Of a DNA stretch of 64,000 nucleotides, positions 29,383 through 57,946 are shown piece by piece. The stretch is from the IMG/VR virus record IMGVR_UViG_3300032007_000001. One strand, 5' to 3'. The translations under genes were made by a program, and so were the position numbers. Position 1 is the stretch's first letter; each line of letters starts with the position of its first letter. The stretch is from a virus. Lineage: Duplodnaviria > Caudoviricetes. The notes beneath the pieces were generated by a model, which ran no database searches, was not told the DNA's origin, and saw nothing but the letters and a program-made list of their open reading frames with translations.

Positions 29383-29700
29383 TTAATTTTGTAATTTTCG
29401 ATACTCTTCGTCATACCATTTTTCAAGTGCAGCCATATCTATTTTATCTTTTGCTATTGCTTCGGTATCTTCATGAAGCATATCATCGGTGTACTGCTCA
29501 ATGAGCAAAGCTTTCTGCCATGTGTATTTGGCATCTAGTTCTGCAATCTTGTCCTCTTTCGACGGAGCAGGATTTTCAACCACCTCGTAGTACTCGCCTT
29601 TGTCCTCAATATGCGCGTTATTTGCATTACACCATTGAGCCGTCTCCGTGTACTGCTCCATATCATCTTTGTTATTCTTGTATAACTTATCACCTATCAT
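29383..29700 (-). CDS. Tail-fibre assembly/chaperone-like protein
   Basis: A.WCN.N.A.IEDKGEYYEVV motif; ATGA overlap with the fibre gene stop. Confidence 0.6.
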   Translation of the reverse strand: MIGDKLYKNNKDDMEQYTETAQWCNANNAHIEDKGEYYEVVENPAPSKEDKIAELDAKYTWQKALLIEQYTDDMLHEDTEAIAKDKIDMAALEKWYDEEYRKLQN

Positions 29701-31235: not shown

Positions 31236-31247
31236 TATATCACCTAT

Positions 31248-32324
31248 TTATAATTTTCCAATTTTCCAAACTTTTACTCTGCAAGGCAGTTGGTTGCCAA
31301 CGTTACCACCAATTCCAAACGATGAACCAGATACTTGCGAAGGAGCAATTAAACAACTATCGTTACCAGTTTGTATAACAATGTTGTTATTATCATGCAT
31401 ATATGTTTTAACACCTCTTGCATAACCAGTACCATTTAATTCAAATGTATACCAACCAGCACTTCCCCATTGATTGTTATATAAGACTTCAACATCACAT
31501 TTTACAATGTAACCAGGAAAAGGATTGGATTCAACGTAACGACTATTAATTGATATATTTACTGGATTTTGTTCTGTTCCATTATTTGGATAAATATAAC
31601 AAAAATCTCTTTCAAGAAAATGGTCTTCACCAGTTTGTGTTAAGTTATTCAATCCTTTTGAAGCTTTATTGTTTAATGTATTTACATATTGTTCAATACT
31701 AATTAAAGTACTATCAACAGTTTGACCATTAAATACTTTTATGATGTATCGTACTGTAACTGATTTCGGTTGAACAGTAGAAGAATTACCATATATAGAA
31801 GAACTTCTAGAAGCATCAAAATCTATTGAATAAACCATTTGAGAATATGACCCACTTGGATTTAATCCTCCAAATGTTTTCCCAGATGAATATCTAAATG
31901 CACCCTCTGAATTATCTAATATATAAAATGGTGCAACATAATTGTTTCCACTTTCTGTTTCTCTTGATACTTTACCTGTAATATTAGGAAGACCAGCGTT
32001 TTTAGAAGTACCAGCAGTTGAACTACCTTCTAAAAATTCTCCGCCAGTTAAGTTAGGAAGATTGAAGGTTGTTTCTCCATTGCCAATCCCATATGTTGTA
32101 CCAATAATAGAAAATAAATCACTATATGTTTTTCTAGATAGAGCGCTTCCATCACAAAAAAGAAAATTATTCGGAAGAGTATTCACATTCCCAATATATG
32201 GAACTATAGTTCCTACAGGAACACTATCTAAATTTAAGTCTTTTATGTTTTCAGTTGTTATGTTTTTTACTACCTTAAATTTGGCAGTACCATACGTTAT
32301 AATATCATCCAAATATGTTGACAT
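31248..32324 (-). CDS. Tail-fibre protein with collar domain and YPNNG...LPCRVKVWK tip
   Basis: Collar motif, AGLPNITG, FDASRSSSIYG.S.TVQP. Confidence 0.85.
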   Translation of the reverse strand: MSTYLDDIITYGTAKFKVVKNITTENIKDLNLDSVPVGTIVPYIGNVNTLPNNFLFCDGSALSRKTYSDLFSIIGTTYGIGNGETTFNLPNLTGGEFLEGSSTAGTSKNAGLPNITGKVSRETESGNNYVAPFYILDNSEGAFRYSSGKTFGGLNPSGSYSQMVYSIDFDASRSSSIYGNSSTVQPKSVTVRYIIKVFNGQTVDSTLISIEQYVNTLNNKASKGLNNLTQTGEDHFLERDFCYIYPNNGTEQNPVNISINSRYVESNPFPGYIVKCDVEVLYNNQWGSAGWYTFELNGTGYARGVKTYMHDNNNIVIQTGNDSCLIAPSQVSGSSFGIGGNVGNQLPCRVKVWKIGKL

Positions 32325-34343: not shown

Positions 34344-35528
34344 TTATAGTTCCTTGCTAAGAATATCTAATGGATAAATTATTTTTTTATCTTCTATAAA
34401 ATCACTTTGCATTTCTTTTAAGTTAATGATTTGGTCATCGGGGATTTGCCAGTTGCCAGTCATTTTTTTATTTGTCGTATCCCACCAAGACACAAAGTAC
34501 ATTGGCTTATCTACATTAATATCGTTTTCAATATATTTCTTAAAGTCATTTTCTGTTCTTTCTTTTAATTTATCATCCATAATACTGCAACGAATACTTC
34601 CTTGCCAATCGTTGTTTATATTCGTTGTATCAAATCTTTTTACTATCTCCATGGCTTTTTCATTGAAAGTAGCATTAAATGGGCCGGCGCCATGTTTCGT
34701 CAAATATGTTCTTGTACAATACACAGGAATAGTCTTTTCTTTTTCAAGACCATTTCTTAAAATAATATTGATTGGATTAGTAGAGTCAGTTTTTGAAGGT
34801 GTAGTATGTGGATAGGATTCTTCGTTATCTTCATCAAGCAATAATCCCTGTGCATTTTCAAAAATAAAATTATCATAATCCTTAAATAAAGATTTTTCTT
34901 CTTTTATAAGATACACTTTAGGATTATTCAACGATTTATCCAATTCTTCATAAAAGTCATCCATAGCCAAAGCCAAATTTATATCTTTGAATTGTTCAGG
35001 TATTCTTCTATTTATTTCTATCATTGCTTGTTCAAACCCATAAAAGTGTTGAATCAAACTTTTCGTAAATTCTCTTCTTTGCGAAAATGACATTTTTTGC
35101 AGTGTTCCAATACTCATAGGAAGTCTTTGACTTCTTATTTTTGTCGCAAAAATGCCCATGCCGCAAGACCCATGTCTATCTTTTGAACGTATCGTTTCAA
35201 TAAGATGATTCATAAGAATGTCTATTGGTGTAGTGATTCTACATTTTTCATTAATAAAAACGTCTGGAGAATAAGTCTTTGATTTTTTTTCGTATTCATC
35301 ATTAAAAGAGAAAGGATTGAAAATGAATGTATTTGCTAAATACGTAGGAATTGGAGCAGAACACAACGAATGATGTATAAATCCATAACTCGTATGTCCA
35401 GCTTGACAACCGCCATTGTGTTTAATTCCAAGGACGTAGTGGGCTGCAAGATTGTCTTTTATATATCTAACTGCGCGCCCTTTTCCTTCATCACCGTAGT
35501 TACTTCCAATCACTATGTAATTGCTCAT
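34344..35528 (-). CDS. Divergent adenylosuccinate synthetase-like protein
   Basis: G.NYGDEGKG, NGG.QAGHT, HGSCGMGI, FENAQGLLLD, PHTTPS, TRTYLT.HGAGP, TN...WQG..R. Confidence 0.85.
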   Translation of the reverse strand: MSNYIVIGSNYGDEGKGRAVRYIKDNLAAHYVLGIKHNGGCQAGHTSYGFIHHSLCSAPIPTYLANTFIFNPFSFNDEYEKKSKTYSPDVFINEKCRITTPIDILMNHLIETIRSKDRHGSCGMGIFATKIRSQRLPMSIGTLQKMSFSQRREFTKSLIQHFYGFEQAMIEINRRIPEQFKDINLALAMDDFYEELDKSLNNPKVYLIKEEKSLFKDYDNFIFENAQGLLLDEDNEESYPHTTPSKTDSTNPINIILRNGLEKEKTIPVYCTRTYLTKHGAGPFNATFNEKAMEIVKRFDTTNINNDWQGSIRCSIMDDKLKERTENDFKKYIENDINVDKPMYFVSWWDTTNKKMTGNWQIPDDQIINLKEMQSDFIEDKKIIYPLDILSKEL

Positions 35529-35546
35529 TTTCAATCCTTCTTCCAA

Positions 35547-36897: not shown

Positions 36898-37923
36898 TTA
36901 ATCAATGTATGGGTCAACATCATCAATTTTAATGAATTCTCTATTTGGAAAGGTCTTGTCTCTTACTTTTTCCCATTCTTTTAATTCATCCAATAAATCC
37001 ATTTCAACTTCATTTGCTAACATGCCATAGTTTGATGAACCAGTTTTTGTTTGTGTATGCAATAAAAATTCTGTCATATCATATCCGCATATTTTATTCA
37101 ATTGATTAAAAGTGTTTGCTTGCAAAAGATTTCTAATAATAGCTTTTGAACATTCTACATCTGTTAAATAATTTGAAATCTTTTCGTCTTTTATCAATGG
37201 AGGAAGTAGGTTGAAAATTTCTTTTGACGTTCCAATCATTTTTTCTCCAGCTTCAGTACCAAATTGCCAACCTCCATATAAGCATACTCCATGTTTTGCT
37301 AAATTGACATAACAATTATTAATGCATATTCCGTTATGTACAAATCTGCTCATCCAAAACAATACGCAAAGGTTAAGCAAACGCGTAAGTACCCAAGCGG
37401 CATGTTCTTTTTGTTTGAAAATTTCTTTCACTAACATTAATGGATATTCGTCAACTTCTTTTTCCAACACGATATAAAAAATATTGTCAGCCGATTCAAA
37501 ATTGTCTATGATTTTAGGAATGAATTTTTCAAAATATTCTTTTTGACGATTGTCTTTGAAGTCAATATTATTTACAGAATTGATGTAATTATCATAATAT
37601 TTTTTTTGATTAAAAGAGAAAACAATAATTTTATCTCCAGCATAAGCATTTCCGACTTCAGTAGAATACGAATAACGATATTTTAACTGCATTTTTTTGT
37701 TTAACTTGTTTATGATAATAGAATGTTTGCTTTCTCCCCAAGAATTATTTTCAAAATGTTGTTTTGCTTCTTGATAGAACATATTCAACTTAAACATCAA
37801 TTGTTCTGCTTCTTCAGAATGATTGACATCCGGATGATATTCTTTTGCTAAATTCAAATATTCTTTCTTGAAATTCTCTTTTGAAAATATATCGCTATAT
37901 ATCTTAGCTTTTTCAAGATTCAT
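36898..37923 (-). CDS. J-domain fused to degenerate kinase-like domain
   Basis: Y..LAKEYHPD J-domain; W...RL, VHNGI...N, LYGGW; start at ATG 37923. Confidence 0.7.
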   Translation of the reverse strand: MNLEKAKIYSDIFSKENFKKEYLNLAKEYHPDVNHSEEAEQLMFKLNMFYQEAKQHFENNSWGESKHSIIINKLNKKMQLKYRYSYSTEVGNAYAGDKIIVFSFNQKKYYDNYINSVNNIDFKDNRQKEYFEKFIPKIIDNFESADNIFYIVLEKEVDEYPLMLVKEIFKQKEHAAWVLTRLLNLCVLFWMSRFVHNGICINNCYVNLAKHGVCLYGGWQFGTEAGEKMIGTSKEIFNLLPPLIKDEKISNYLTDVECSKAIIRNLLQANTFNQLNKICGYDMTEFLLHTQTKTGSSNYGMLANEVEMDLLDELKEWEKVRDKTFPNREFIKIDDVDPYID

Positions 37924-38019
37924 TCCTTCATCTCCTTTATATAAGAAGTATTCTATATCAATGCAAATAAAAAGTAAATAATGTATTACAAATAATGAAA
38001 AAATGGGCATTATGCCCAT

Positions 38020-38232
38020 TTAACTTAAATAATTAATTACATCTTGTACTGTTATCCAATTTAAGTCATTGTCTTTTATTGTAATATCATATTTTTCTTC
38101 TATGTCCATAGCTATTTCAGCTAAATCCAAAGAATCGAATCCTAAATCATCGATAAGAGAATCTTCATTCTTTATTTCTTCAGCGCTTAATTGGCTATGA
38201 TTGGATAAAAGTTCTTTTATTTCTTGCTCCAT
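38020..38232 (-). CDS. acpP: Acyl carrier protein
   Basis: DLGFDSLDLAEI...IEE.Y.I.I.D......TVQD..NYL; Ser for phosphopantetheine retained. Confidence 0.85.
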   Translation of the reverse strand: MEQEIKELLSNHSQLSAEEIKNEDSLIDDLGFDSLDLAEIAMDIEEKYDITIKDNDLNWITVQDVINYLS

Positions 38233-41271: not shown

Positions 41272-41478
41272 GCCACTAAAAATTAGTGGCTCTTGTTTAT
41301 AATCAATACGTAAACGAACGATATTTTATTATCGATATAAATTTAATTTGAAAAATGAAGCTAGAGGGGGAAATACCTTATGGCAGTTGATTTGAGACGC
41401 CTCGACGCCAATGGCCTTAATTATTATTTTAAGGAAGTTGGTTTATTATATGACCAAAAATATGTTTCCAAAGATGAA
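41272..41478 (+). repeat. Left copy of diverged direct repeat (terminator, promoter region, first 33 codons)
   Basis: Matches 52213..52411; encodes identical MAVDLRRLDANGLNYYFKEVGLLYDQKYVSKDE. Confidence 0.85.
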
Positions 41479-42333
41479 GTACGAGTAACCAATGTTACGT
41501 TAGAAGGTAATTCTTTAGTTATATATTTTAATGACGGAACAAGGAAAAAACTTGACGAATATGATGAAGAATTTGAGAACCTAAGAACATACTTAAATGA
41601 TAAATTCAGTGAAGTTGAAAATTCTGTTAATAATATAAATTTAACTGTGACAGGCAAATGTGCTAGTGATGAAATAACATTAAGCCCAAATAATAATGTA
41701 AATATTGATATTAGTTCTGTTGATGCAGATACAATCAATGTAACATCTGTAACTGATAATAATAGATATTTAGCACTCGTTGATGGCGTTGGCAATCAGG
41801 AAGTACATAATATCGAAGATTTTTATGTTAATTGTGATAATAAAAAATTATACGTTACAAATATCGAATGTTCTGGAGATATTAAAGGTAATCGTGTATT
41901 TAATGCAGTCTGGAATGACTATGCTGAATTAATGCCTCGAGGAGAAGAAACTGAACCTGGCGATATAATCATGTTAGACCTTAAAACCAAAGATGAACGT
42001 TATATTAAAGCTACAGATAAATTAGGTACAGTAGTAGCTGGTGTTCATTCGGATGAATTTGGTATGCTAATAGGCGGAGAAAAGCCAGTTGATAGTAAAG
42101 ACCTATTAGAGTATAATATAGACAAATATATTCCAATAGCTCTATCCGGCAGAGTTCACGTTAAATTTATCGGTAAAGCTAAGAAAGGAGCTAAAGTAGT
42201 TCCTTCTTCTGAACCTGGATATGGACGTTTATATAATAAAGGAGTAGATGACCCAGATACTATTATTGGGTATTTGGTTGAAGATGATGACAAAACAGAC
42301 AAGAGAAAACTTAAAATTAGAATCACGAGGTAA
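41380..42333 (+). CDS. Tail fibre/spike with C-terminal intramolecular-chaperone (peptidase G2/S74-like) domain
   Basis: NAVWNDYAE....E..PGD, GV.SD..G..IGG, PIAL.GRV.VK. Confidence 0.7.
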   Translation: MAVDLRRLDANGLNYYFKEVGLLYDQKYVSKDEVRVTNVTLEGNSLVIYFNDGTRKKLDEYDEEFENLRTYLNDKFSEVENSVNNINLTVTGKCASDEITLSPNNNVNIDISSVDADTINVTSVTDNNRYLALVDGVGNQEVHNIEDFYVNCDNKKLYVTNIECSGDIKGNRVFNAVWNDYAELMPRGEETEPGDIIMLDLKTKDERYIKATDKLGTVVAGVHSDEFGMLIGGEKPVDSKDLLEYNIDKYIPIALSGRVHVKFIGKAKKGAKVVPSSEPGYGRLYNKGVDDPDTIIGYLVEDDDKTDKRKLKIRITR

Positions 42334-43309
42334 ATTAGACTTAATTATTAAGCCTACACAAGCTTGCAATTTTGCTTGTGAATTTTGTTCTTCTAATGAT
42401 ATTAGTAATAGTAATAATAAAATATTACCATTAGATTTTCTCTGTGATTATATATTAAAAAATAATATTAATAGAATAATAGTAAACGGAGGAGACCCAT
42501 TGATGGTATCTCCCGTTTATTATTTGAAATTGTTGTCTTTCGTAGATGCTAATAAATTGGATGTCCATATATCATTTACTACTAATCTTTGGGATTTTTA
42601 TATTAATCCAAGCAAATGGGTAAATATATTTAAGAATTCTAAAGTTGGTATATGTACAAGTTTTCAATATGGAAATGAAAGAAAACTGAGAGATGGAACT
42701 ATTTTTTCGGAAAAATTATTTGTAAAAGTATTCAATAAATTCAAAGAATTAATAGGATATAATCCAATGTTTATTGTTGTTATTAATAAAAACAATGAAC
42801 ATTTGGCATTAAAACATGTGGAATTAGCCAAAAAATTAAATACAAAATGCAAAATGAATCCAGCATTGGCATCTGGACGAACAACAGAACCTTATCCTTT
42901 ATATAAAATGTACAATATATATGTGGATATTATTAAGCATGGATTATCTGATTATGAATTTAATTCTAAAGAAATAGTAAAATTATATAATAATCAACCC
43001 GCATGTTGTCCATATAGCAGAAATTGTTATAAAGGGATAAGATGCATTGACCCGGACTTAAATATATATACATGCGGAGCTTTTAACGATAATCATAACA
43101 ATAAAGATTATGCTATTCATAGTGGAAATTTTATTGCAAAAGATTATCCTTTTATAAAAAACGAGTGCTTAGCTTGTGAGTTATTCAAATTTTGCAATTC
43201 ATGCTATAAAAATATAGCCGATATTAAAAATTTTAATTTAATAGATGAGCACTGTATTGGTATGAAAAAGATAGGCAAAGAATTATGCAAAGTATGTACA
43301 TTAAATTAA
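42248..43309 (+). CDS. Radical SAM/SPASM enzyme 1 (start uncertain)
   Basis: LIIKPT..CNFACEFC, NGGDPL, TTNL; C-terminal CP...C ... C..C.....C..C......C. Confidence 0.85.
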   Translation: MTQILLLGIWLKMMTKQTRENLKLESRGKLDLIIKPTQACNFACEFCSSNDISNSNNKILPLDFLCDYILKNNINRIIVNGGDPLMVSPVYYLKLLSFVDANKLDVHISFTTNLWDFYINPSKWVNIFKNSKVGICTSFQYGNERKLRDGTIFSEKLFVKVFNKFKELIGYNPMFIVVINKNNEHLALKHVELAKKLNTKCKMNPALASGRTTEPYPLYKMYNIYVDIIKHGLSDYEFNSKEIVKLYNNQPACCPYSRNCYKGIRCIDPDLNIYTCGAFNDNHNNKDYAIHSGNFIAKDYPFIKNECLACELFKFCNSCYKNIADIKNFNLIDEHCIGMKKIGKELCKVCTLN

Positions 43310-44142
43310 CTGAATCATGCAACTTAAAATGTCCGTTTTGTTATGTTGTTCAGAATAATAATAAAATGACATTAAAAACCGCATTAGAATCAATAGATAA
43401 GTATAATCCTGAAGAAATAATATTTCATGGTGGCGAACCAACATTAGAGAAAAAATTAATATTAAATATCTTAAAAAATAGACCAAATTATAAATATTCA
43501 ATAACAACAAATCTAATGACAAATATTGATAAGGAATTGGAATATATATTAAAAAAATGTTCAGTTGCAACAAGTTATTCATATGATAGATTTATCAATA
43601 AGAATCAATTTGATAAATTTAAGAGTAATTTTAATAAGGTTATTAAAATAAATGATATTACTTTGTTAATAACATTAACACCAAAACAACTGATAAGACC
43701 AACCAAAGAATTATGTAATATTATTAAAGAATTAAATCCTACTAATGTTACATTAGAACGAGTAAGGTTAGATTATATAACTGACATAAATGAATATAAA
43801 AATTTATATAAACTTACTGACGAATATTTGTATGAAATATTTTCTAGAGGTCTAATACCAATAGAAAAGAACAATCTATACAAAATGATAGTTAAATCAA
43901 TTAAAACCAATACACCAGTTTTTAGTAATTGTAATGTAATAACTGTTAACCCAGATGGGTCTGTTATTAATTGTCCAAATGGACCATTAGAAAAGAAAAG
44001 ATTAAAGGAATGTATTACTTGTAATATATATCAATATTGCAAAAATGATTGCCAGAGTTTTTCATCATTGGCATGTAGTTTTCCTATTAAAACTGTAAGC
44101 TTTGTAAAGGAGGCGCTGTATAATGGCAGTAACGAAAGATAA
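43285..44142 (+). CDS. Radical SAM/SPASM enzyme 2
   Basis: CNLKCPFC, HGGEPT, TTNL, NPDG....CP, C..C.....C...C......C. Confidence 0.85.
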   Translation: MQSMYIKLTESCNLKCPFCYVVQNNNKMTLKTALESIDKYNPEEIIFHGGEPTLEKKLILNILKNRPNYKYSITTNLMTNIDKELEYILKKCSVATSYSYDRFINKNQFDKFKSNFNKVIKINDITLLITLTPKQLIRPTKELCNIIKELNPTNVTLERVRLDYITDINEYKNLYKLTDEYLYEIFSRGLIPIEKNNLYKMIVKSIKTNTPVFSNCNVITVNPDGSVINCPNGPLEKKRLKECITCNIYQYCKNDCQSFSSLACSFPIKTVSFVKEALYNGSNER

Positions 44143-44704
44143 TGTTATATCGTTATCAGAACTTTGTAATTACATAAATACCAATGTAGTAGATTATATA
44201 CAATCTCAAATACAATACTATAAAGAAAATCCTCCTCCGAATTTTAGTGGTAATGAAGATTATCTTCATTCTGGAACAACATTAGAAACCTTAACTCCAG
44301 ATATTATTACTAATTCAAATGATAAAATTAGTTTTAACGTATTGTATGAAAAATTGCAGCAATTATTTAAGAATTGGGCATTAGTAAGAATAATTGCTCA
44401 TACATATTATGTTGGTAATAATACAAATGGTGGAACAATAACTTATACTAGTAATGAATATTCCGGATATGCTTATTTAACAACAGACCCAAAAGATAAT
44501 TCTCTTACATTAACCAATTTGTTAAATACTAAAATAACCACAGACCATCTATCAAATATAGTATCAAAAATTAAAAATAGATGGTTTACAGTAGCGTCTG
44601 CTGACCAACAAAATACAGATACAACCAATTGTCATACGAATTGCCACAGCAGTTGTCACAGCAGCTGTCACAGTAGTTGTCATGGGAGTAGTGGTGGCTG
44701 GTGA
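44123..44704 (+). CDS. Candidate radical-SAM substrate protein with C-terminal (CHxx)5 repeat
   Basis: Ends TTNCHTNCHSSCHSSCHSSCHGSSGGW; sits among the rSAM genes. Confidence 0.7.
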   Translation: MAVTKDNVISLSELCNYINTNVVDYIQSQIQYYKENPPPNFSGNEDYLHSGTTLETLTPDIITNSNDKISFNVLYEKLQQLFKNWALVRIIAHTYYVGNNTNGGTITYTSNEYSGYAYLTTDPKDNSLTLTNLLNTKITTDHLSNIVSKIKNRWFTVASADQQNTDTTNCHTNCHSSCHSSCHSSCHGSSGGW

Positions 44705-45441
44705 TTAATATGAATGAGAATATTATTAAGACACAGATACCTTTTGATGATGAACTGCTTGACAAATGCTTAAATGATGACGATGGTTCTTTATATGTCA
44801 TTGAATTTGATAAAAGCCAATATAAAGATGTTCGTTTTTTGAACTATATATATAATTTGGAATTAAAAAATTTTATAGTAAATTTTCAAAACCTAAGTAC
44901 AGAATTGTCAGATATTTTGATTGAATATATAACTATCAACAAAATACTGAGCGTTGACATATTTAACAGAATATGGATAAATGTATTGGAAAAACATTTA
45001 TTTAATAAACATTATGATAATGAACAATATGATGCATTTTTAAGTGAATTTATCAATAAAAATCATAACATCATAGAAGAATTATCAATAATATTATGTT
45101 CTCTTAAGTCTTATTTGTTGCAATTTACTTTTAATAAAAATTTTGATATAACCAAATACTTAAATAATAGTGAAGAATTCAAACAAATAGGTATTAATTT
45201 AGTATCATTAAGAAATTCAATAACGTTTTGGAATTTATTTGAAGAACTTGATAATGCTAAAAACATAAATATCAAAAAATATAAGAATTTTTATAACAAT
45301 TCATTTGAAGGATATAATATAGATAAGTATTTTCTTAAAGAATTCAACCCATTGGGATTAATATTTACAATGTCAAATGATAATTATAAGCAACTTAATG
45401 ATTTTACAAAGGAATTAAAATGTACGTTTACATCAGATTAA
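44701..45441 (+). CDS. Hypothetical accessory protein of the rSAM operon
   Basis: Overlapping start and stop with neighbours. Confidence 0.65.
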   Translation: MINMNENIIKTQIPFDDELLDKCLNDDDGSLYVIEFDKSQYKDVRFLNYIYNLELKNFIVNFQNLSTELSDILIEYITINKILSVDIFNRIWINVLEKHLFNKHYDNEQYDAFLSEFINKNHNIIEELSIILCSLKSYLLQFTFNKNFDITKYLNNSEEFKQIGINLVSLRNSITFWNLFEELDNAKNINIKKYKNFYNNSFEGYNIDKYFLKEFNPLGLIFTMSNDNYKQLNDFTKELKCTFTSD

Positions 45442-46334
45442 CTGAAAAATGTAACTTAAATTGTGAACATTGTTTTAACAATATTAGAACTAATAAAATT
45501 ATAGATTTTGATAAATTAAAAGTTGTTCTTACCAACTTGAATAAAAGATTCAATAATAATATTTTTATAATTCATGGTGGAGAACCACTTTTGGTGAACA
45601 CAAAAGACATAATAAAATTAATCAACGATTTTCCAAATAATAAATGGCAAATTACAACGAATCTGATTTATGATTTAACAGATGATATGATAAGTTTGTT
45701 CAAACTCATAAATATATTAAGAATTTCGTTTGATATAAAAATCAGATTCAATAATTTTAGAAATTTACATACATGGGTTAAAAATATCAAAATATTGAAA
45801 CAAAATAATATTGACATTAACTTAAACTTGTGTTTAACGAAATATTTGATTAATCATAGTATTAGCAGTTTCATTAATTTTATAAATAGATTGGACACAA
45901 AAACATATAGATTAGAAATTCTTAGATATCATGGAAATGTTAATTGTAAAAGTCAATTTGTTATTAATAATAATCAAATAGACGATTGGATTTTTGATTT
46001 ATATAAATATGATAAAACTGATAATAGATGCATTAACATACAAGAAATAAAACATTGTATAAATAGTAAAAATAGTTTTTATAAAACCTGTTGTAATAAT
46101 ACATTAACTATTAATAGTGACTTAAGTATTGGTAATTGTCCAGCATATACGAGCAATAATTCAAAATTATTGTTGGATGAAATTTTACATAATCATAGAA
46201 AAATTCGTAATGAATGCTTAATATGTGATTATTACCAATATTGTCGTGGTTGGTGTAATAAAATGAATTGGACTAATAACATATGTCCTTTTCCAAAGAA
46301 ATTAGCTAATGAAATACTGGAGGGTATGAAATGA
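45420..46334 (+). CDS. Radical SAM/SPASM enzyme 3
   Basis: CNLNCEHC, HGGEPL, TTNL, CC...TIN.D....CP, C..C.....C.G.C.......CP. Confidence 0.85.
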   Translation: MYVYIRLTEKCNLNCEHCFNNIRTNKIIDFDKLKVVLTNLNKRFNNNIFIIHGGEPLLVNTKDIIKLINDFPNNKWQITTNLIYDLTDDMISLFKLINILRISFDIKIRFNNFRNLHTWVKNIKILKQNNIDINLNLCLTKYLINHSISSFINFINRLDTKTYRLEILRYHGNVNCKSQFVINNNQIDDWIFDLYKYDKTDNRCINIQEIKHCINSKNSFYKTCCNNTLTINSDLSIGNCPAYTSNNSKLLLDEILHNHRKIRNECLICDYYQYCRGWCNKMNWTNNICPFPKKLANEILEGMK

Positions 46335-47551
46335 TAATAAATATATTTGAGAAGCCATTCAGTAAAACGGAATTTAAGAAATTTGACGATAACGTTGATT
46401 TTACAAATGGCAAGATAAATAATTATAATGCTATAATCAACGATGATATGATACTTATAAATTCAGAATGGTATAATTCGGATGAAACTACAACAACGGC
46501 ATTGTATAATAAATCATCTGATATTAAAACCTCAAACAATTATATTGAAATTGATAATGTAATTTGTAAAAATATTCCTACTTTTGGTGTAACTCTTGAA
46601 GACAATTTTAATATATTGCAATTCAATTTAACTAGAGAAGAAGTTAATAATAGCAACGTAATGTCATCAATCATTAAACATAGAGGTTGTTTAATGTTTT
46701 GGGACACTAACAAAAAATATAATTATTCTAGTAAAGAAATTGATGAAAATAAATTAAAAGAATTAGTTGCTATATATAAGAAACAAGGATATATTGCACC
46801 ATTAGTTTTGTATGCAGATAAGGATTTTATTAGACCCTATTATCATGATTATATTATCTACTTGTATAAAGTACTTAATTTAGATATTCTACCAGTTCGT
46901 ATCATAACATATAAAGATATAAGATACATTAAAAATATTGATGAATTAATATATAATAAAATCAAATCGATACAAAGCAATAAATACTATGAAGCTGTTG
47001 ATAATGAAGACATGTCGCCTTACATGATATCAAATTACAGCAATAAAAGAGATATTATAAAAAAATATCTCAATGGTCAGTTTAACAACTTGCAATTCGA
47101 TGATTTGCATGAATTTTTGCCTTATGTTTTTAACGACGAAAAAGAAAACTTAAATAAAAATTTAATAACGAATGTAATGAATCATGATTTTTCTAAATAT
47201 TTCTACTTAAAAAATGGAAAACAATTTTATAGTATGTCATTGAGTGAGTCACTATTTAATTATCTTAATGGACATTTAGATACTAAAGAAATTAGTATTA
47301 CAGAAGACCAGATAATTAAAAAATTTCCAAAATTTGAAATAAAAAAAATAATTGACTTTGACCCATCTTTGCTTGCATTAGATTATTTTGATTATAATAT
47401 CAACAACGAAATAATTGGTGAGATTAGTAAACAATTTGGTAGAAATTGTTTATATGAAGAATCGCCAAATGCATTAATAGACTTTCATGTATTAAACGAT
47501 TTATTAAATGGTTCTGAAACCAAAATAAAAATTCTTAAAATAAAGAAATGA
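46331..47551 (+). CDS. Hypothetical protein of the rSAM operon
   Basis: ATGA overlap; weak ParB-like segment (L....K.QG..APLV). Confidence 0.6.
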   Translation: MIINIFEKPFSKTEFKKFDDNVDFTNGKINNYNAIINDDMILINSEWYNSDETTTTALYNKSSDIKTSNNYIEIDNVICKNIPTFGVTLEDNFNILQFNLTREEVNNSNVMSSIIKHRGCLMFWDTNKKYNYSSKEIDENKLKELVAIYKKQGYIAPLVLYADKDFIRPYYHDYIIYLYKVLNLDILPVRIITYKDIRYIKNIDELIYNKIKSIQSNKYYEAVDNEDMSPYMISNYSNKRDIIKKYLNGQFNNLQFDDLHEFLPYVFNDEKENLNKNLITNVMNHDFSKYFYLKNGKQFYSMSLSESLFNYLNGHLDTKEISITEDQIIKKFPKFEIKKIIDFDPSLLALDYFDYNINNEIIGEISKQFGRNCLYEESPNALIDFHVLNDLLNGSETKIKILKIKK

Positions 47552-47556
47552 GTTAA

Positions 47557-48378
47557 ATGTTCATAAACACATTAAGCAAAATTATATTTATTAATAAGAG
47601 TTCCGAACCAAAAATTAAAATATGTAAATTTTTGAGTTATAGTTATTTAGAAGATTATAAAAAACTAAAAAAGTCATATCCAACAATTGAATTTTTATAT
47701 AAAGATTTATTAAAGCAAAGTAGAATTTATAATAAATTCAATAACTATCACATATTCATATTTGATAATGATGATTTTATCAATGCGTTAATTGATTACT
47801 GCGTATTATTACAATTGGATAAAACTGCATTGGATAAAATGATAGAATATTCAAATGTTTGCGAAATGTATGAAGAAAATCATCAATATTTCATTTCTGT
47901 ATATGATGAAGATTTTATATTAGATACCAGTAAAATTGTACTCAATAAATCAAAGATACATATTAAAGATTTATCAATGTTTCCAGCAGAATTTTTTGTT
48001 AATTGTATGGATAATAATATTGCTATACAAAAATACTCTAGAATGAGATTATTTGATTTATACATCACTATAAAAGACTTACAATATTTATTAATAAAAG
48101 AAAATAAAAGTATTCCAAAAGAACTTCAATGTTTTGGAAACAGTGACCAAACAACCTTATTATTGGAAAATAATGATATATTTAATAATGTTATAAAAAC
48201 ATTAAACGAATACAATGTTGATACAAATAAATTTACTTGTCCAATCAATAAGTACTTGGACTTAAATCCAAATTTTGGATACGATAGGTATTTCATGACA
48301 AAATATAATTATATGTTGGCTAAATACTTAAAATCTATTAATTATAGGATAACACAATATGTTGCGAAAAGATTATGA
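47557..48378 (+). CDS. Hypothetical protein of the rSAM operon
   Basis: ORF. Confidence 0.6.
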   Translation: MFINTLSKIIFINKSSEPKIKICKFLSYSYLEDYKKLKKSYPTIEFLYKDLLKQSRIYNKFNNYHIFIFDNDDFINALIDYCVLLQLDKTALDKMIEYSNVCEMYEENHQYFISVYDEDFILDTSKIVLNKSKIHIKDLSMFPAEFFVNCMDNNIAIQKYSRMRLFDLYITIKDLQYLLIKENKSIPKELQCFGNSDQTTLLLENNDIFNNVIKTLNEYNVDTNKFTCPINKYLDLNPNFGYDRYFMTKYNYMLAKYLKSINYRITQYVAKRL

Positions 48379-49189
48379 ACATATAGAAAAAACATTTTTT
48401 TCTATTAAAAATGAACCAATAGGATATAGTTATCCAGATATGTATTCTGCTTATAAAAATTTTTCAAAAAATTTTAATATACCTATAGGCAATTTTATAT
48501 TAACAAATGGTTGCGAAAATGCCATTAGGATATTATTATCTTTATTCTCTAAAGAAATAACTACAGAAAAACCTCTTTTAATAGAAAAACCAGGGTGGGA
48601 ATTAGTATCTGTATTAGCATATGCTATGGATATACCTTATAAATTCTATTATTATGATAATGAATTTAAGACTAATTATGATAAAACTCATATAGTTTAT
48701 ACGACAGATACTTATAATAATGTAATCAAACATGAGTTTCCATCTGGTGAAGCAGATATTTATATAATAGATGAATCTTATACGATGAAACATTATTTTA
48801 ATGAAATACAAATACAAGATAATCACATAATCATTGGGTCATTTAGTAAGTTGGTTGACCCAGGTATAAGATTAGGATATATATTGTTTTCAGATAAATA
48901 TAGAGATAAAATGAATTTGTTAAGAGAGCAATATGTTAATAAAAATGCAGTAGATATATTAAAAAATTTATTTATAAAAAAGCCAGATTTTACAAAACCC
49001 AAAATTGAAAATAGCGAATTAATTGTGGCTTCACATTCTACTTATCTTACATTAAAAATTAATGATTTCCCGCTCAGTCATAAAAAATTTTCAATAAACA
49101 ATATTAATTACTGTAGAATAGGTAGACTTTCTGATAAATCTCAGGAGGTACTATTATTAAATGACATACTCAGAAACATTAAAGAATAG
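48359..49189 (+). CDS. PLP-dependent class I/II aminotransferase-like (HisC/CobD-type), compact
   Basis: YPD, LTNG.E.AI, IIDESY, SFSK...PGIRLGY. Confidence 0.75.
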   Translation: MLRKDYEHIEKTFFSIKNEPIGYSYPDMYSAYKNFSKNFNIPIGNFILTNGCENAIRILLSLFSKEITTEKPLLIEKPGWELVSVLAYAMDIPYKFYYYDNEFKTNYDKTHIVYTTDTYNNVIKHEFPSGEADIYIIDESYTMKHYFNEIQIQDNHIIIGSFSKLVDPGIRLGYILFSDKYRDKMNLLREQYVNKNAVDILKNLFIKKPDFTKPKIENSELIVASHSTYLTLKINDFPLSHKKFSINNINYCRIGRLSDKSQEVLLLNDILRNIKE

Positions 49190-49958
49190 ATATAAAATTA
49201 ATAATAATGATAATGAAATAGATTGCTTAAAAACTATATGTATTAATGTAACAGACTATTGCAACTTAAAATGTTCTTATTGCCCGCACGGGCATTCTTT
49301 TAATAGTAAAGAACATATTATGAATCTAAATACATTGGACAAATTAATAGAAAGACTTAATGAACTTAACTATAAAAATAGATTAACTATATCTGGATTT
49401 GGAGAACCAATGCTTCATCCATATATAGATATAATTATAAATAAACTGAAAAAATTTAATGTAGAAATATTAACAAATGGGTTAGTGGTTCCTAAGAATA
49501 AAACATCAATATTGAAAAACGCTAACAAAATAATTGTTAGCGTTCATAACATAAATGATTTAGATAAAATAAAAGAATTTTGGCCAAATGCAATAATAAG
49601 AAATCATGATATTGCTGATAAAAATTGCGAATTAATAGTAACGAATAGAGCTGGGTACTTAAACGATAAATATATAGATAATATATGTTCTTGCCCTTTT
49701 TACAAAATGTTTATAGATTATGACGGTTCGTATTTATTGTGTGCTGATGATTTCAAAAGAAAATCATTTCATAATCAAGTAAACATATTTAATCTATCAA
49801 TTAAAGATTATTTCATCAATTGCTTAAAAACAACCAAAATTAATATGCTTAATAGTAGAAAACTAATCGAGCCTTGTAATAAATGCAATATTAATGGAAC
49901 TGTATACGGATTAGATATAATTGAAAAATTCAAAAAAGAGGTATTAAAAATTGGATAA
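49161..49958 (+). CDS. Radical SAM enzyme 4 (twitch/SPASM)
   Basis: CNLKCSYC, SGFGEP.LHP, TNG, NRAG, C..PF....ID.DG....C, PC..C. Confidence 0.85.
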   Translation: MTYSETLKNRYKINNNDNEIDCLKTICINVTDYCNLKCSYCPHGHSFNSKEHIMNLNTLDKLIERLNELNYKNRLTISGFGEPMLHPYIDIIINKLKKFNVEILTNGLVVPKNKTSILKNANKIIVSVHNINDLDKIKEFWPNAIIRNHDIADKNCELIVTNRAGYLNDKYIDNICSCPFYKMFIDYDGSYLLCADDFKRKSFHNQVNIFNLSIKDYFINCLKTTKINMLNSRKLIEPCNKCNINGTVYGLDIIEKFKKEVLKIG

Positions 49959-50364
49959 TAGAAAAATAGGCAAATTTAAGGATATGTTTTATTTAATAGA
50001 TGAAAAAATTAGAAAGAATGTATTTAAGTTAAATCAAGCTGGATTTGTTACTTTTACAAGCAGTCAGGGAAATAATATAGAATTACCAAAAATTGGGATA
50101 GTATGTAAATCGTTATATGAAGCAAATGAAATAATAAAATTAATTGATACAAATAAAACAAATATATGGTATGAATTGTCAAATAGATGGTATAAAGAAA
50201 ATCCAATGTGTTGTAACGAAATAAATTATGATAATCAAACTAATTGTGATAATATATGTAAACCGTTCGATTTAGATTGGGACAGATGCTATTTTTTATT
50301 ATTTAAGGCTAAAACATTGAAAGAATTAGATGATTTGACCGATTTTCTAATTAAGAAGGAATAA
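49951..50364 (+). CDS. Hypothetical protein with TYW3-like N-terminal motif
   Basis: IDE.I...V..LN..G..T..S.QG. Confidence 0.45.
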   Translation: MDNRKIGKFKDMFYLIDEKIRKNVFKLNQAGFVTFTSSQGNNIELPKIGIVCKSLYEANEIIKLIDTNKTNIWYELSNRWYKENPMCCNEINYDNQTNCDNICKPFDLDWDRCYFLLFKAKTLKELDDLTDFLIKKE

Positions 50365-50366
50365 TA

Positions 50367-51269
50367 ATGAAATCAGATTGTTTATATGGTCATAAAATAA
50401 CTGTTGGATATAATTGCAAAGGTCAAGATTTTTTTGATATATTATCTTTTTATAAGAAATATATAGAAGAATTCTATTTTTCTTTTAGGCATACTATGCC
50501 CAAAACACCATTAGATTTAAGTATTATTTATAATCAATTAAAAGATTCAGAACAATATGATATTCCTTCTAATTTGTTATTAAATACAGAACAAGAAGAA
50601 TTGGAATGGGAATATCTTATTAATAAAGCTTATGAATGTACAAAATTGCAAGCTGTGTCTGTATTAAATATAAAAACTGCTAAAATTATAAAAGAAAAAT
50701 TTCCAAATATAAAAATTCACATATCTACTCATGGTGCGCAATATATTGATATTAAAGAATTAGATAAAAACTTAATTTATTGTGTTAATGTGAATGAACC
50801 GGCAATTTATACAGAACAACAACAAAATGTTATTAAAAAATGTAAAAAAATTGGAATTAAACTTAAGCATATAACTAATAGAGGCTGTATTTTTAATAAA
50901 CACGATTTTATGTCTCGTTTAACTGGGAAAAATATAATGTGTTGCAATGGATATCAATGCAAAAAAATATTGAAAGATTATCCATGGGTAGATTTAATTA
51001 GAACGAATTTATATAAAGAACAATTAAAATATCTTAATTTTGATTTTATTAAACTTTCTACTAGGGAAAGAACAAATGAAGAAATTAGTATGATGCTTAA
51101 ATATTGGACAAATCCAAAAATATCTACTGCTCATTTGTCGAATATTTATATATCAGAAAATAAATATCCAATTTTCTTAGAATGGTGTAAACAAAGATTT
51201 ATTTGTAATGGAAATTGCATAACTTGTAATATATGTAAAGAATACTATAAAAAATTAAAAGAAAATTAA
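50367..51269 (+). CDS. Peptidase U32-like Fe-S protein
   Basis: I...FP.I.IHIST, N.GC, KLSTR, C-terminal C...C..C..C. Confidence 0.65.
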   Translation: MKSDCLYGHKITVGYNCKGQDFFDILSFYKKYIEEFYFSFRHTMPKTPLDLSIIYNQLKDSEQYDIPSNLLLNTEQEELEWEYLINKAYECTKLQAVSVLNIKTAKIIKEKFPNIKIHISTHGAQYIDIKELDKNLIYCVNVNEPAIYTEQQQNVIKKCKKIGIKLKHITNRGCIFNKHDFMSRLTGKNIMCCNGYQCKKILKDYPWVDLIRTNLYKEQLKYLNFDFIKLSTRERTNEEISMMLKYWTNPKISTAHLSNIYISENKYPIFLEWCKQRFICNGNCITCNICKEYYKKLKEN

Positions 51270-51301
51270 ATCATAAATATTGTTATACGTTAAGAGGGAT
51301 T

Positions 51302-52207
51302 ATGATGTATAATTATATAAATGAAATTGATAATGATTCTATAGTAGATAGAATAATAAAAATATCAAATAATACTAATGTTCATTTGTATGATACACCA
51401 GTCACTGTTAAAATAGAGTTGACTGGTGTTTGTACTTTGGGATGCGTTTTTTGTTTTAATCAAATTATGAAGAAAAACAAAATAAGACAAAAAATGATGT
51501 CAGATAAAGAATTTGATATATGCCTTAAATATATTGGTAAAATACCAACAATAAAAGAAGTTGGATTATTTTATATGGGCGAATCGACTTTACATCCAAA
51601 ATTAGTAGAATACTATAAGAAAGTAAAAGAATTGGGATATTTTACATTTTTAACTACTAACGGAACGTATATAAAAGAATTAATAAAAGCTATCCCATAT
51701 ATAGACAGCTTAAAAGTATCTTTCAATTATATAAATGATAAAGATTTTTCAATAAAAACCGGTTTACCCAATAAGGTTTATTTTGATATAGTTGATAATA
51801 TATCAATATTAAAAAATGAATGTCATAAACAAGGCAAAAAACTATATGGTTCAACTGTGCTTGATTATAATGAACAAGACTATTTGAGTAATGAAGTTAT
51901 AAAAACTTTTGATGAACACTATTTCATTCCGTTGCAAAATCAAGGTGGACTTATAAATAAAGGAAAAGGCGGAGTTGTTGGAGAAAGTAAACATCAAGTA
52001 AAAACCATTCCATGTTGGTCTTTATTTAAGGGATTATATATAGATGTAGACTTAAATGTCAGAACATGTTGTTATGGACATACAAAAGAACATATATTAT
52101 TTAATTTAAGAGATTGTAATCGCGATTTGGAAAAATTATATAAAATCAGAAATCAACAATTATCGAAAAAAATACCAAATATTTGCAACAAATGCTTAAA
52201 AATATAA
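51302..52207 (+). CDS. Radical SAM enzyme 5 (twitch/SPASM)
   Basis: IELT..CTLGCVFC, GLFYMGES, TTNG, PCWSLF......D....CC, C..C. Confidence 0.85.
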   Translation: MMYNYINEIDNDSIVDRIIKISNNTNVHLYDTPVTVKIELTGVCTLGCVFCFNQIMKKNKIRQKMMSDKEFDICLKYIGKIPTIKEVGLFYMGESTLHPKLVEYYKKVKELGYFTFLTTNGTYIKELIKAIPYIDSLKVSFNYINDKDFSIKTGLPNKVYFDIVDNISILKNECHKQGKKLYGSTVLDYNEQDYLSNEVIKTFDEHYFIPLQNQGGLINKGKGGVVGESKHQVKTIPCWSLFKGLYIDVDLNVRTCCYGHTKEHILFNLRDCNRDLEKLYKIRNQQLSKKIPNICNKCLKI

Positions 52208-52212
52208 GCCAT

Positions 52213-52411
52213 GTCACCAAAATTAATAGTATTAGTTTATAATCAAAATGTAAATAAATGATATTTTATTATTGATATAAATTTGATTTAAAAAGCTGTA
52301 GGAGGAAACCTCATGGCAGTCGATTTAAGGCGTCTAGATGCCAATGGTCTTAATTATTATTTTAAAGAAGTTGGCTTATTATATGACCAAAAATATGTCT
52401 CTAAAGATGAA
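52213..52411 (+). repeat. Right copy of diverged direct repeat
   Basis: Matches 41272..41478, with the upstream hairpin degenerate. Confidence 0.85.
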
Positions 52412-52939
52412 AAAAGAGTAATCAATATTTATTTAAGTGGTAATACATTAATTATTCAATTTAGTGATGGTTCTACACAAGAAGTAGATGTAAAATATAG
52501 TGAAGCATCTAATGATGAATACGGACTTGTAAAATTATATTCCAGCGAAGGTAACAATACAGACGGCGCAATGTCGCAAAAAGCTATTACAGATTTGATA
52601 ACACAAAAAACATCTTCTGCTAGATATGGTGTTTGTTCAACAGCTGCTGAAACGGCAGCAAAAACAGTTGAATCGGCAGGACAATTTATTTTAGAAGCCG
52701 GTTCTAGAGTAACCATTAAATTTACAAATGTCAATACTGCAAATGCGCCAACATTAAATGTAAATAATACTGGTGCAAAATATATTTATGCTAATGGGCA
52801 TCAACTTACAGCAAATAGCAATTTGATAGTTGCTGGTGGCATATATGATTTTGTATATGATGGAACAAATTGGGAAATGCCAAATATTACAAATGTTCCA
52901 AAAGAATCTGGAATTATAGATTTCTATACAACTCCATAA
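52313..52939 (+). CDS. Tail-fibre protein (paralogous N-terminus to 41380)
   Basis: YGLVKLYS..G.NTDG.MSQKA; YG.CSTAA.TAAK.V....F.L..G..V..KFT..NTA..PTLNVN.TGAK.I ... YDGTNW. Confidence 0.75.
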   Translation: MAVDLRRLDANGLNYYFKEVGLLYDQKYVSKDEKRVINIYLSGNTLIIQFSDGSTQEVDVKYSEASNDEYGLVKLYSSEGNNTDGAMSQKAITDLITQKTSSARYGVCSTAAETAAKTVESAGQFILEAGSRVTIKFTNVNTANAPTLNVNNTGAKYIYANGHQLTANSNLIVAGGIYDFVYDGTNWEMPNITNVPKESGIIDFYTTP

Positions 52940-53646: not shown

Positions 53647-53804
53647 TTCATTATTAAAACCTCCCAAATTAAAAGAGAACTTAATTGTTCTCTTTTAATT
53701 TAGTGTGTTATCAATTTTATTTATATATTGAAACATAATAACGAAACAACAAATCAATATTATGTTTTTAGATGTTGATGTTCTATTTTATGGAAGGTGA
53801 AAAA

Positions 53805-55013
53805 ATGGAAATAATCAAAAGAGATTTTTGGATTGATGAAGATGAATTATCCGAAAGAGACGAAACAGATATGATTGTCATTCATCATACTGGTGGTGCA
53901 GATATTGACCCATCAGCAGAAGATATAAACGGCTGGCATGTAAATCAAGGTTGGGTCTGCATAGGATATCATTATGTAATATGTAAAGATGGGTCGATAG
54001 AAGAAGGAAGACCGGAATGGGCTGTCGGTAGTCACGCTTACGGAGAGAACAGTCATACTATTGGTATTCATCTTGGCGGAGATTTTAGCGAAGCTATGCC
54101 AACAGATGAGCAAATTGAGTCTTGTGCAGAACTGATTGCTCATTTATGCAAAAAATATGATATAGAAATTAATAGAGATAATATTGTTGGACATAGGGAT
54201 TTAATGTCAACTGATTGTCCTGGTGATAATTTATATGATTTAATTCCAACAATCATTCAAAAAGCAAATTGGTATAGTGGAGAAGATATTAAAGAAACAA
54301 ATGATGTTGCTGAAGCTATTGAAAAATCTCAAATCAACGTTGATGATATTGCCATTCTTACAAGAAAATACGAATCTTCAGGTAATCCAGCAACCGTTTC
54401 AACTGGTTACGGTGACCTTGGCGGTATTAGTTATGGAACATATCAATTTGCAAGCAATCTTGGGATAGTGGATAAGTTTGTAAATTGGCTTTGCAATTAT
54501 CCGGATGATGATTTTGCAAATTATGGTAGAGTATTAAAAGAACATAACGTTAATAGTGAAGAATTCATTAGTCAATGGAAAGAGCTTGGAGAAGTAGACC
54601 CTGGAAATTTTGGAATGTTGCAGGATGAATACGTTAAAAGCGTATATTTTGACAATGCAATAAATAGACTAAGAAATAATGGCTTAAATATTGAAAAACA
54701 TTCCAAGGCTTTAATGAACGTTGTAATGAGTCGCGCAATTCAAAATGGCGTTGGCGGATGTAATGAATTGTTTGCTATTGTATGCAATCAAATGGGACAC
54801 CCAAATCTTTCTTATATAGATGATGCTTATTTTGATAGAGAAATAATTGAAAAAATTTATGATTTCTTAATTGAAGAATGCGACAACGCGCAAGAAGACG
54901 ATAATGGAATTTATCGTTCGCCAAACGGGTTCTGCAATGGTTCACAAGGTGTAATTAATGGATTAAAGAATAGATTCATTAATGAAAAACAAGATGCAAT
55001 TGATTTATTGTAA
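53805..55013 (+). CDS. Endolysin: Amidase_2 domain plus lysozyme-like (YES...GG.SYG.YQ) domain
   Basis: IVIHHT, IGYHYVI..DG.IE.GR, GSHA.G.N, GHRD...TDCPG; KYESSG...VSTG.GD.GG.SYGTYQFAS. Confidence 0.85.
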   Translation: MEIIKRDFWIDEDELSERDETDMIVIHHTGGADIDPSAEDINGWHVNQGWVCIGYHYVICKDGSIEEGRPEWAVGSHAYGENSHTIGIHLGGDFSEAMPTDEQIESCAELIAHLCKKYDIEINRDNIVGHRDLMSTDCPGDNLYDLIPTIIQKANWYSGEDIKETNDVAEAIEKSQINVDDIAILTRKYESSGNPATVSTGYGDLGGISYGTYQFASNLGIVDKFVNWLCNYPDDDFANYGRVLKEHNVNSEEFISQWKELGEVDPGNFGMLQDEYVKSVYFDNAINRLRNNGLNIEKHSKALMNVVMSRAIQNGVGGCNELFAIVCNQMGHPNLSYIDDAYFDREIIEKIYDFLIEECDNAQEDDNGIYRSPNGFCNGSQGVINGLKNRFINEKQDAIDLL

Positions 55014-57899: not shown

Positions 57900-57917
57900 G
57901 TTTTTCACCTCAATGTA

Positions 57918-57946
57918 ATTATACCACAAATGAAATCATGTGTAAA
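57918..57946 (-). promoter_or_regulatory. Sigma-A-type early promoter TTTACA-17-TATAAT
   Basis: Seen directly upstream of the RNA ligase RBS. Confidence 0.7.

Follow-up and report, generated by a model that had tools for sequence, protein, structure and literature searches.

A tail of cysteine-histidine repeats encoded among radical SAM genes in a giant phage: a candidate cross-linked segment of a probable virion protein

The DNA analysed here was a 64,000-nucleotide (nt) stretch (the window) of a giant phage, contained in the 504,279-bp IMG/VR virus record G000 (G+C 29.7%), whose source sample is likely a bovine gut metagenome. Within it, an operon encodes several radical S-adenosylmethionine (rSAM) enzymes and, between them, a protein ending in five consecutive Cys-His-x-x units (Table 1). 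This protein, referred to as the CH-tail protein, is considered below as a candidate substrate of the neighbouring enzymes and as a possible component of the phage particle.

The gene of the CH-tail protein is preceded by a strong Shine-Dalgarno sequence (AAGGAGG, 9 nt 5' of the ATG). It overlaps the upstream gene of rSAM enzyme B by 20 nt, and its stop codon overlaps a possible GTG start of the next gene, which encodes the phrog_20767 protein; because of these overlaps on both sides, it was considered part of a tightly packed operon. The translation of the open reading frame (ORF) ends in CHTN CHSS CHSS CHSS CHGS SGGW. An earlier reading made from the letters alone (the sequence-only reading) had pointed to this ending and to the different synonymous codons used in each unit, and both the ORF and the codons it listed were verified. 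It had also concluded that the repeat was kept at the protein level and was not a product of slippage. The first half of this conclusion held, since the unit is conserved in 56 family members and selection at the protein level retains the CH motif itself throughout the family. The second half needed correction: the central three CHSS units make up a tandem repeat of 12 nt that has diverged (44641-44682, 3.5 copies, 86% matches), and because of this structure the growth from the usual 3 units to 5 in the window copy probably occurred by tandem duplication.

No match was found for the CH-tail protein of the window in Pfam, NCBIfam or PHROGs. A word-indexed protein search and a single-sequence viral scan found no relatives, and tblastn of the protein and two relatives against isolate phages was empty; exhaustive phmmer was the only route to the family, giving 32 homologues, most of them 172-197 amino acids (aa) long and matched over near their full length. 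The relatives match phrog_35144 (function unknown). The CH-tail protein thus belongs to an undescribed and widespread family and is not an orphan.

Two sets of sequences were used to describe the tail: an alignment of 33 sequences (A1), and 56 unique members for the motif statistics. In the alignment, C170, C174, C178 and H179 were invariant, with a consensus end CHxNCHxxCHGSGGxR. The family tail can be written as (C-[H>>Y]-x-[S/N/D])n-[G/R]G[R/W/F/Y]R at the extreme C-terminus, the last residues being RGRR, GGRR, GGWR or similar. Three units were present in 46 members, four in 4, five in 3 (window copy included) and six in 3. Across the 186 units, Cys was invariant, position 2 was His in 182 and Tyr in 4, and position 4 was Ser, Asn or Asp in 175 (112, 48 and 15, respectively). 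The repeat is far beyond chance, as these Cys and His columns are invariant and the unit is conserved throughout the 56 members, half of which have no Cys outside the tail. Some copies depart from this scheme: the extreme tail at L009 9773-10276 has about nine CH units and ends in CWCFWCA, and P0022 carries a 49-residue Cys-rich insertion between CH units.

The sequence-only reading had taken the first ~165 aa for a folded domain and had recommended structure prediction followed by Foldseek. AlphaFold2 with the family alignment agreed, giving an ordered alpha/beta domain for residues 1-170 (pLDDT, or predicted local distance difference test, 87.1; predicted template modelling score, pTM, 0.81) and a tail of low confidence; the single sequence gave a useless model (pLDDT 38.5). 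A homotrimer prediction (three copies, alignment A1) scored 0.00 and weighs neither way. The domain model gave no match in the PDB at E<=0.001 with Foldseek, only an unconvincing one in a wide VIA-align search (best Z 4.2) and template modelling scores below 0.4 in the ESM Atlas; its BFVD matches were uncharacterised phage family members only, and a profile search of PDB sequences with A1 returned nothing. The predicted domain thus has no convincing match to a known fold. Three members carry additional domains: L004 has a Peptidase_S74 “chaperone of endosialidase” domain after the tail (starting SDERLK, E 1.5e-11), L026 a BspA-type leucine-rich-repeat insertion, and P0035 an N-terminal Gly_rich_2 domain fused to the family member. 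By Pfam, the Peptidase_S74 domain is absent from the window protein, and among the relatives only L004 carries one. The idea that this domain replaces phrog_20767 in L004 was rejected, since tblastn finds phrog_20767 at L004 10972-11586.

The association of the tail with rSAM genes was followed across 26 viral loci obtained by scanning viral contigs for CH-tail homologues, most of them fragments of large genomes according to CheckV. Every one of these viral records (26/26) contained between 2 and 9 matches to PF04055. In 19 loci an rSAM-like gene lay no more than 25 nt away from the CH-tail gene, and in none of the 26 was the distance greater than 3.2 kb; of the 88 neighbouring rSAMs, 66 had the SPASM-type CX2CX5CX2-3C motif. 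Two independent metagenome contigs from another database, found for P0020 and P0031, also had between 2 and 9 rSAM matches and showed an arrangement matching the viral loci. Homologues lacking nearby rSAM genes, which would have spoken against the link to rSAM enzymes drawn by the sequence-only reading, were sought in these 26 and 2 loci and none was encountered. The phrog_20767 gene was present in every locus checked (BLAST or hidden Markov model, HMM). In the gene maps the order is conserved. First comes a ~2000-aa DUF4815/phrog_358 protein, followed by the 75-aa phrog_473 “virion structural protein” and a ~430-aa protein weakly similar to tail fibres; next come a cupin, an rSAM, the CH-tail gene and phrog_20767, and after these a ~370-aa protein and at least two more rSAMs. 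These maps showed no other candidate substrate with repeats that was conserved across the loci.

All five rSAM genes of the window exceeded the PF04055 gathering cut-off (37.9-46.7 bits vs. 29.5), and the CX3CX2C cluster motif was located. Pfam SPASM (PF13186) reached its cut-off only in rSAM D. Enzyme A contains the motifs CNFACEFC and CLACELFKFCNSC, its SPASM-type motif being a CX2CX5CX2C variant (regular-expression search). Enzymes D and E, whose genes start at 49161 and 51302, follow the three SPASM-type rSAMs flanking the CH-tail gene and belong to the accessory part of the operon, together with two unknowns, a pyridoxal phosphate aminotransferase-like protein, a 137-aa protein and a Cys-rich 300-aa protein. 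No Pfam family was found for the phrog_20767 protein, nor a PDB relative in a profile search of PDB sequences, and its Atlas scores were below 0.9.

Table 1. Features of the CH-tail operon in the window (positions counted from the first letter of the 64,000-nt stretch).
Feature	Position	Strand	Remarks
317-aa protein opening the operon	41380..42333	+	homologues in L002 and L003, upstream of the module
Radical SAM enzyme A	42248..43309	+	PF04055 38.4 bits; SPASM-type C-terminal Cys motif; homologues in 23/26 loci
Radical SAM/SPASM enzyme B	43285..44142	+	PF04055 39 bits; CX2CX5CX3C; directly 5' of the CH-tail gene, overlapping
CH-tail protein, 193 aa	44123..44704	+	ATG start; predicted alpha/beta domain residues 1-169 and C-terminal tail
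Tail proper, (CHxx)5 then SGGW	44630..44701	+	units at 44630-44689; C170 = nt 44630; proposed modified core
phrog_20767 protein, function unknown	44701..45441	+	phrog_20767 E 1.7e-16; directly 3' of the CH-tail gene in most loci
Radical SAM/SPASM enzyme C	45420..46334	+	PF04055 37.9 bits; CX2CX5CX3C; homologues in 24/26 loci, usually directly 5' of the CH-tail gene
Accessory operon part	46331..52207	+	Pfam; shared only by L002 and L003 (closest relatives)

A pattern search for C-H-x-x repeats, of a kind that the sequence-only reading had suggested for C-termini in viral databases, was run on the GTDB genome collection, using the back-translated DNA pattern CHxxCHxxCHGS[G/R]G. It returned 35 sites, 25 of which lay at the C-terminus of an ORF matching the family HMM; at the other 10 the screen gave no ORF with a C-terminal tail, though one or more of them, L058 included, do encode family members. 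Two types of site were distinguished. At the “phage-type” sites, the HMM match reached far into the N-terminal domain or spanned it, and phrog_20767 was present in most cases; the contigs carrying these sites were of low GC content, had been binned with Bdellovibrionota, Flavobacteriaceae, Rickettsiales and other groups, and may represent phage DNA. The “cellular-type” sites came from isolate genomes (Pseudomonas oleovorans, P. defluvii, Pseudomonas sp. HS-2, Thalassospira xianhensis) as well as from several metagenome-assembled genomes. Their proteins were short (124-149 aa; 124-141 aa in the isolates), had a signal-peptide-like N-terminus and occurred without phrog_20767. In the isolate copies the family HMM covered the tail alone, the N-terminal parts being unrelated. 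The cellular-type genes were flanked by 4-5 rSAM/SPASM-like genes, whose products aligned over their full length with the rSAMs of the phage loci (E down to 3e-23). No NCBIfam model matched this bacterial tail/rSAM system above its cut-off, and it is unnamed. The signal-peptide proteins of Pseudomonas, Thalassospira and Oceanospirillaceae at L046 4431-4823, L041 2839-3264, L050, L051 and L057 (124-141 aa) end in ...CHGACHGACHGSRGWR.

Because the tail alone is common to the phage and bacterial proteins, and rSAMs flank both, the rSAM set tracks the tail and not the carrier domain. The tail and its rSAM set are thus a portable module shared between phage and bacterial proteins, and the way in which the enzymes follow the tail onto unrelated carriers is the strongest computational argument for the tail being their substrate.

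Family members labelled “hypothetical protein” were identified in cultured phages: Ralstonia phages RSL2 (ORF068, 186 aa) and RSF1, Burkholderia phages FLC6, FLC8 and SURPRISE13 (S13), and Agrobacterium phage Atu_ph07 (AUZ94952.1, 296 aa). The papers on these phages name cupin, rSAM/iron-sulphur (Fe-S) and 2-oxoglutarate-oxygenase genes, and leave the CH-tail protein unmentioned. In Atu_ph07 the module comes after a 13,350-bp “T4-like structural protein” gene (CDS 180) and the baseplate wedge genes 181 and 182. AUZ94952.1 corresponds to gp170 by its calculated mass (31.89), the numbering being fixed by AUZ94958.1 (66.07, gp176) and AUZ94959.1 (21.66, gp177). In the Atu_ph07 virion proteome, gp170 (31.89 kDa) was detected with 8 unique peptides and 35% coverage in bands 1-9, while the neighbouring rSAMs gp171 and gp168 and the phrog_20767 homologue gp169 were absent from the virion list (PMC6102473, Table S5). 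It was most abundant in band 1, listed first and taken here as the top of the gel, which otherwise contained proteins of 75-139 kDa (PMC6102473). Because of this peak, gp170 seems to run far above its monomer size even after treatment at 95 C with sodium dodecyl sulphate (SDS) and EDTA. A virion role of the CH-tail protein is in this way supported indirectly.

Considering these results together, we think it fairly probable that the CH tail is an rSAM-cross-linked tail on a virion protein. The CH-tail gene would provide a protein-sized substrate resembling those of RiPPs (peptides made on the ribosome and then modified post-translationally), made up of a phage-specific alpha/beta domain and a C-terminal core of C-H-x-[S/N/D] units. 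During infection, the flanking rSAM/SPASM enzymes most likely put covalent cross-links into each unit, the candidate links being a thioether from Cys to the residue at +3 and/or a link from the ring of His (or Tyr) to the residue at +2. The phrog_20767 protein probably assists as an accessory or recognition factor; the matured protein would then be built into the virion, the enzymes staying behind. Read as C-x-x-[S/N/D], the tail matches the thioether precedent of CrpC, and read as H/Y-x-[S/N/D] it matches the cyclophane and His-Xaa-Ser (HXS) precedents, all described below; since there are three or more paralogous rSAMs, both reactions are allowed. We infer from this reasoning that the tail is the rSAM substrate, as well as the type of cross-link and the place and role of the protein in the particle.

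Several observations weigh against this explanation. Modification has been seen on no family member. All matches of the rSAMs to characterised maturases lie far below the curated cut-offs, so that the chemistry is not assignable by homology. The near-invariant His beside each Cys suits a metal site, and a plain thioether model does not need it. The virion evidence comes from a homologue with 12% identity to the window protein (structural alignment) and not from the phage of the window, and some non-structural proteins do occur in the virion proteomes of jumbo phages. The monomer model is globular and not fibre-like. The Atu_ph07 gel buffer was described without a reductant (PMC6102473), so the high-mass gp170 species could be disulfide-linked or an SDS-stable oligomer. 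The claim of the sequence-only reading that this is a virion protein consequently stands in part, with gp170 in the virions, the S74 fusion in L004 and the adjoining structural genes on one side, and a predicted globular protein with a flexible tail and no obvious fibre on the other. Its overall proposal, an rSAM-cross-linked or metal-binding virion protein, gained strong backing for the rSAM linkage and backing through a homologue for the virion role, its cross-linking or metal-binding chemistry being a candidate one.

Metal binding is the serious alternative, although we hold it to be unlikely as the sole function of the tail: the Cys/His pairs would chelate zinc, iron or copper, perhaps at an oligomer axis, and the rSAMs would act elsewhere or draw on the tail only as a donor of metal or Fe-S. 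A Cys next to a His is a classic ligand pair, and 182 of the 186 units retain the His, the other 4 having Tyr, which is also a ligand; furthermore, the S74 fusion implies that at least one member has an oligomeric C-terminus, and His-x-His motifs bind metal at the tips of T4 fibres. A plain metal site leaves unexplained, however, the 2-9 rSAM/SPASM genes at every locus and the fact that the rSAMs follow the tail onto unrelated bacterial proteins, and no alternative repeat-bearing substrate is conserved across the loci to occupy these enzymes. The two functions are compatible, as a cross-linked tail could still bind metal. Quite unlikely, in our judgement, is a non-structural role, in which the protein would be a modified effector, would be secreted or injected, or would serve the rSAMs as a helper in assembly or for Fe-S, its presence in Atu_ph07 virions being incidental. 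The bacterial counterparts with signal-peptide-like N-termini do look secreted, and the Atu_ph07 virion list includes some replication and nucleotide-metabolism proteins, but gp170 was represented by 8 unique peptides, 35% coverage and nine bands where contaminants had one peptide, and both the fusions to S74 and Gly_rich_2 domains and the fixed position of the gene after large structural genes speak for a structural protein. Highly improbable is a tail of overlapping C-x3-C-H haem-attachment-like motifs or a plain disulfide cluster devoid of rSAM chemistry: C-H-x-x-C-H can be read as CX3CH and the Atu_ph07 gel had no listed reductant, but successive motifs overlap with Cys residues in common, the phage proteins lack a signal peptide and would not reach the usual haem-attachment machinery, which is periplasmic, and the rSAM linkage would be left unexplained.

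An extension of the cross-linking explanation, possible though somewhat unlikely, is that jumbo phages build their particles with RiPP-type radical chemistry. Each unit would be doubly stapled (Cys thioether plus His cyclophane) or cofactor-like and metal-binding, thereby locking or anchoring a virion protein, and the cassette would have passed between bacterial proteins that are secreted and structural proteins of phages. A covalently locked virion protein would explain why the 32-kDa member of Atu_ph07 peaks in band 1.

Further features were recorded in the window and in the rest of the genome. The product of the gene opening the operon and that of the gene closing it (52313-52939) are near-identical at the N-terminus (47/64 residues, the first 33 identical, E 4e-29) and diverge beyond it, which gives the appearance of two alternative proteins sharing an anchoring domain. 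The genome has 15 PF04055 matches, 13 of them above cut-off, an unusually large rSAM complement for a virus. A same-genome search for paralogues of the N-terminal domain of the CH-tail protein found none, and the other Cys-tailed proteins there are unrelated to it in sequence. These include three tandem paralogues (129, 165 and 163 aa) on the minus strand at G000:C1:400042-401457, ~16 kb upstream of the window start, with Cys-rich tails such as CSYSCSCSCSCGNCGS; the best-scoring rSAM/SPASM gene of the genome lies 6.4 kb from them (393008-394093), which gives this megaphage more than one Cys-tail/rSAM cassette. Two adjoining tail-fibre/tail-collar-like proteins (512 and 358 aa) with many PHROG tail matches are encoded at 29697-32324, confirming the structural character of this region. 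Upstream of the operon, on the minus strand (34344-35546 and 36898-38232), there are an adenylosuccinate-synthetase-like gene (phrog_1211), a DnaJ-domain protein and a 70-aa acyl-carrier-type (PP-binding) protein. The 413-aa protein encoded at 53772-55013 combines an N-acetylmuramoyl-L-alanine amidase with a VgrG3-like C-terminal domain and is probably a tail-associated cell-wall hydrolase, and 56628-57929 encodes a homologue of the T4 Rnl1-type RNA ligase.

The maturation of peptides by rSAM enzymes is well known. On whole proteins, such chemistry has only just been shown, for the Crp (PMC13692751) and HXS (PMC13128918) systems, both in 2026, and no report was found of rSAM maturation acting on the structural proteins of a virus. 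What the present loci add is a multi-enzyme cassette with a clearly defined four-residue target motif, which is conserved in jumbo and mega-phages whose hosts are soil, plant-associated, marine and rumen bacteria and which has bacterial counterparts. The unannotated members in cultured phages (RSL2, RSF1, FLC6 and Atu_ph07) make the cross-linking explanation directly testable, and the Atu_ph07 virion proteome already shows an anomalous gel position. If true, it would extend the post-translational modifications of virions by a new class and the substrates of rSAMs by a new motif, and would supply a compact enzymatic tag with which to staple proteins.

Compared by score with the curated models of named rSAM systems, the window system fell short of every membership cut-off; it appears to work most like the maturation of the Crp and HXS proteins. 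Among structural proteins, the nearest comparison is with S74 fibres and spikes, the Peptidase_S74 domain being a hallmark of oligomeric phage fibres and spikes. Like them, L004 has S74, placed directly after the tail, while in the window copy and almost all other members the protein stops with the tail; the predicted CH-tail domain is globular, with no beta-helix or coiled coil. A paper on cyanophage rSAMs (PMC12801897) was considered for comparison and set aside as irrelevant.

Short-peptide systems resemble the tail in part. Among the rSAM/SPASM synthases of three-residue cyclophanes (triceptides), the His-specific HtkB and HaaB link C2 of His to the beta-carbon two residues on (PMC11499958). 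Their repeated aromatic-x-x motif fits the H/Y-x-[S/N/D] reading of the tail and its His-to-Tyr swaps; the triceptide substrates differ in being short peptides with no Cys involved. The XyeB, FxsB, GrrM, YhhB and AmcB models scored 17-30 bits against cut-offs of 310-450. The CXXX-repeat system (TIGR04115 maturase and TIGR04117 target, described by bioinformatics only) has, like the window tail, a Cys every fourth residue near the C-terminus. TIGR04117 gave no match to the window target at E<=0.01, the nearest sub-threshold match being the Thalassospira precursor (21.6 bits vs. a cut-off of 50), and TIGR04115 gave 24 bits for rSAM B against 350. The best NCBIfam match of rSAM B was the ranthipeptide PapB model (NF047865; 46.2 bits vs. 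340). The ranthi/sactipeptide pattern that the sequence-only reading had recognised in the regularly spaced Cys is thus far from PapB by score, and persists in the C-x-x-acceptor spacing, which fits the thioethers of CrpA.

In the HXS antiphage system (HxsA-D), a folded protein carries tandem H-x-S triplets and undergoes maturation by two rSAM enzymes together with a small partner protein, a covalent change mapping to S-H-x-S-S (PMC13128918). The window tail contains H-T-N, three H-S-S and H-G-S, a likeness at the motif level only, and differs in the invariant Cys that precedes each His. The His-Xaa-Ser pattern noticed in the sequence-only reading was accordingly present in the tail, while the enzymes scored 21-30 bits with HxsB (TIGR03978) and HxsC (TIGR03977) against cut-offs of 370 and 267.9, and no HxsA model matched. 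In the Crp system of Methanococcus voltae, the C-terminal repeats of CrpA receive ranthionine thioethers from the SPASM rSAM CrpC, at C-x-x-D, C-x-x-M and related motifs (PMC13692751, 2026). With TIGR04463, the CrpC family model, rSAM A scored 17.7 bits and a Pseudomonas rSAM 21.1 bits (cut-off 525). Crp is archaeal and cellular, and has one rSAM, 17-residue repeats and no His, whereas the window system combines at least 3 rSAMs, 4-residue C-H units, a probable virion protein and a phrog_20767 partner. What the two have in common is a protein-sized substrate with a leader-like N-terminus, periodic C-terminal Cys motifs with the acceptor three residues on (C-x-x-Q/D in Crp), and an adjacent SPASM rSAM (PMC13692751).

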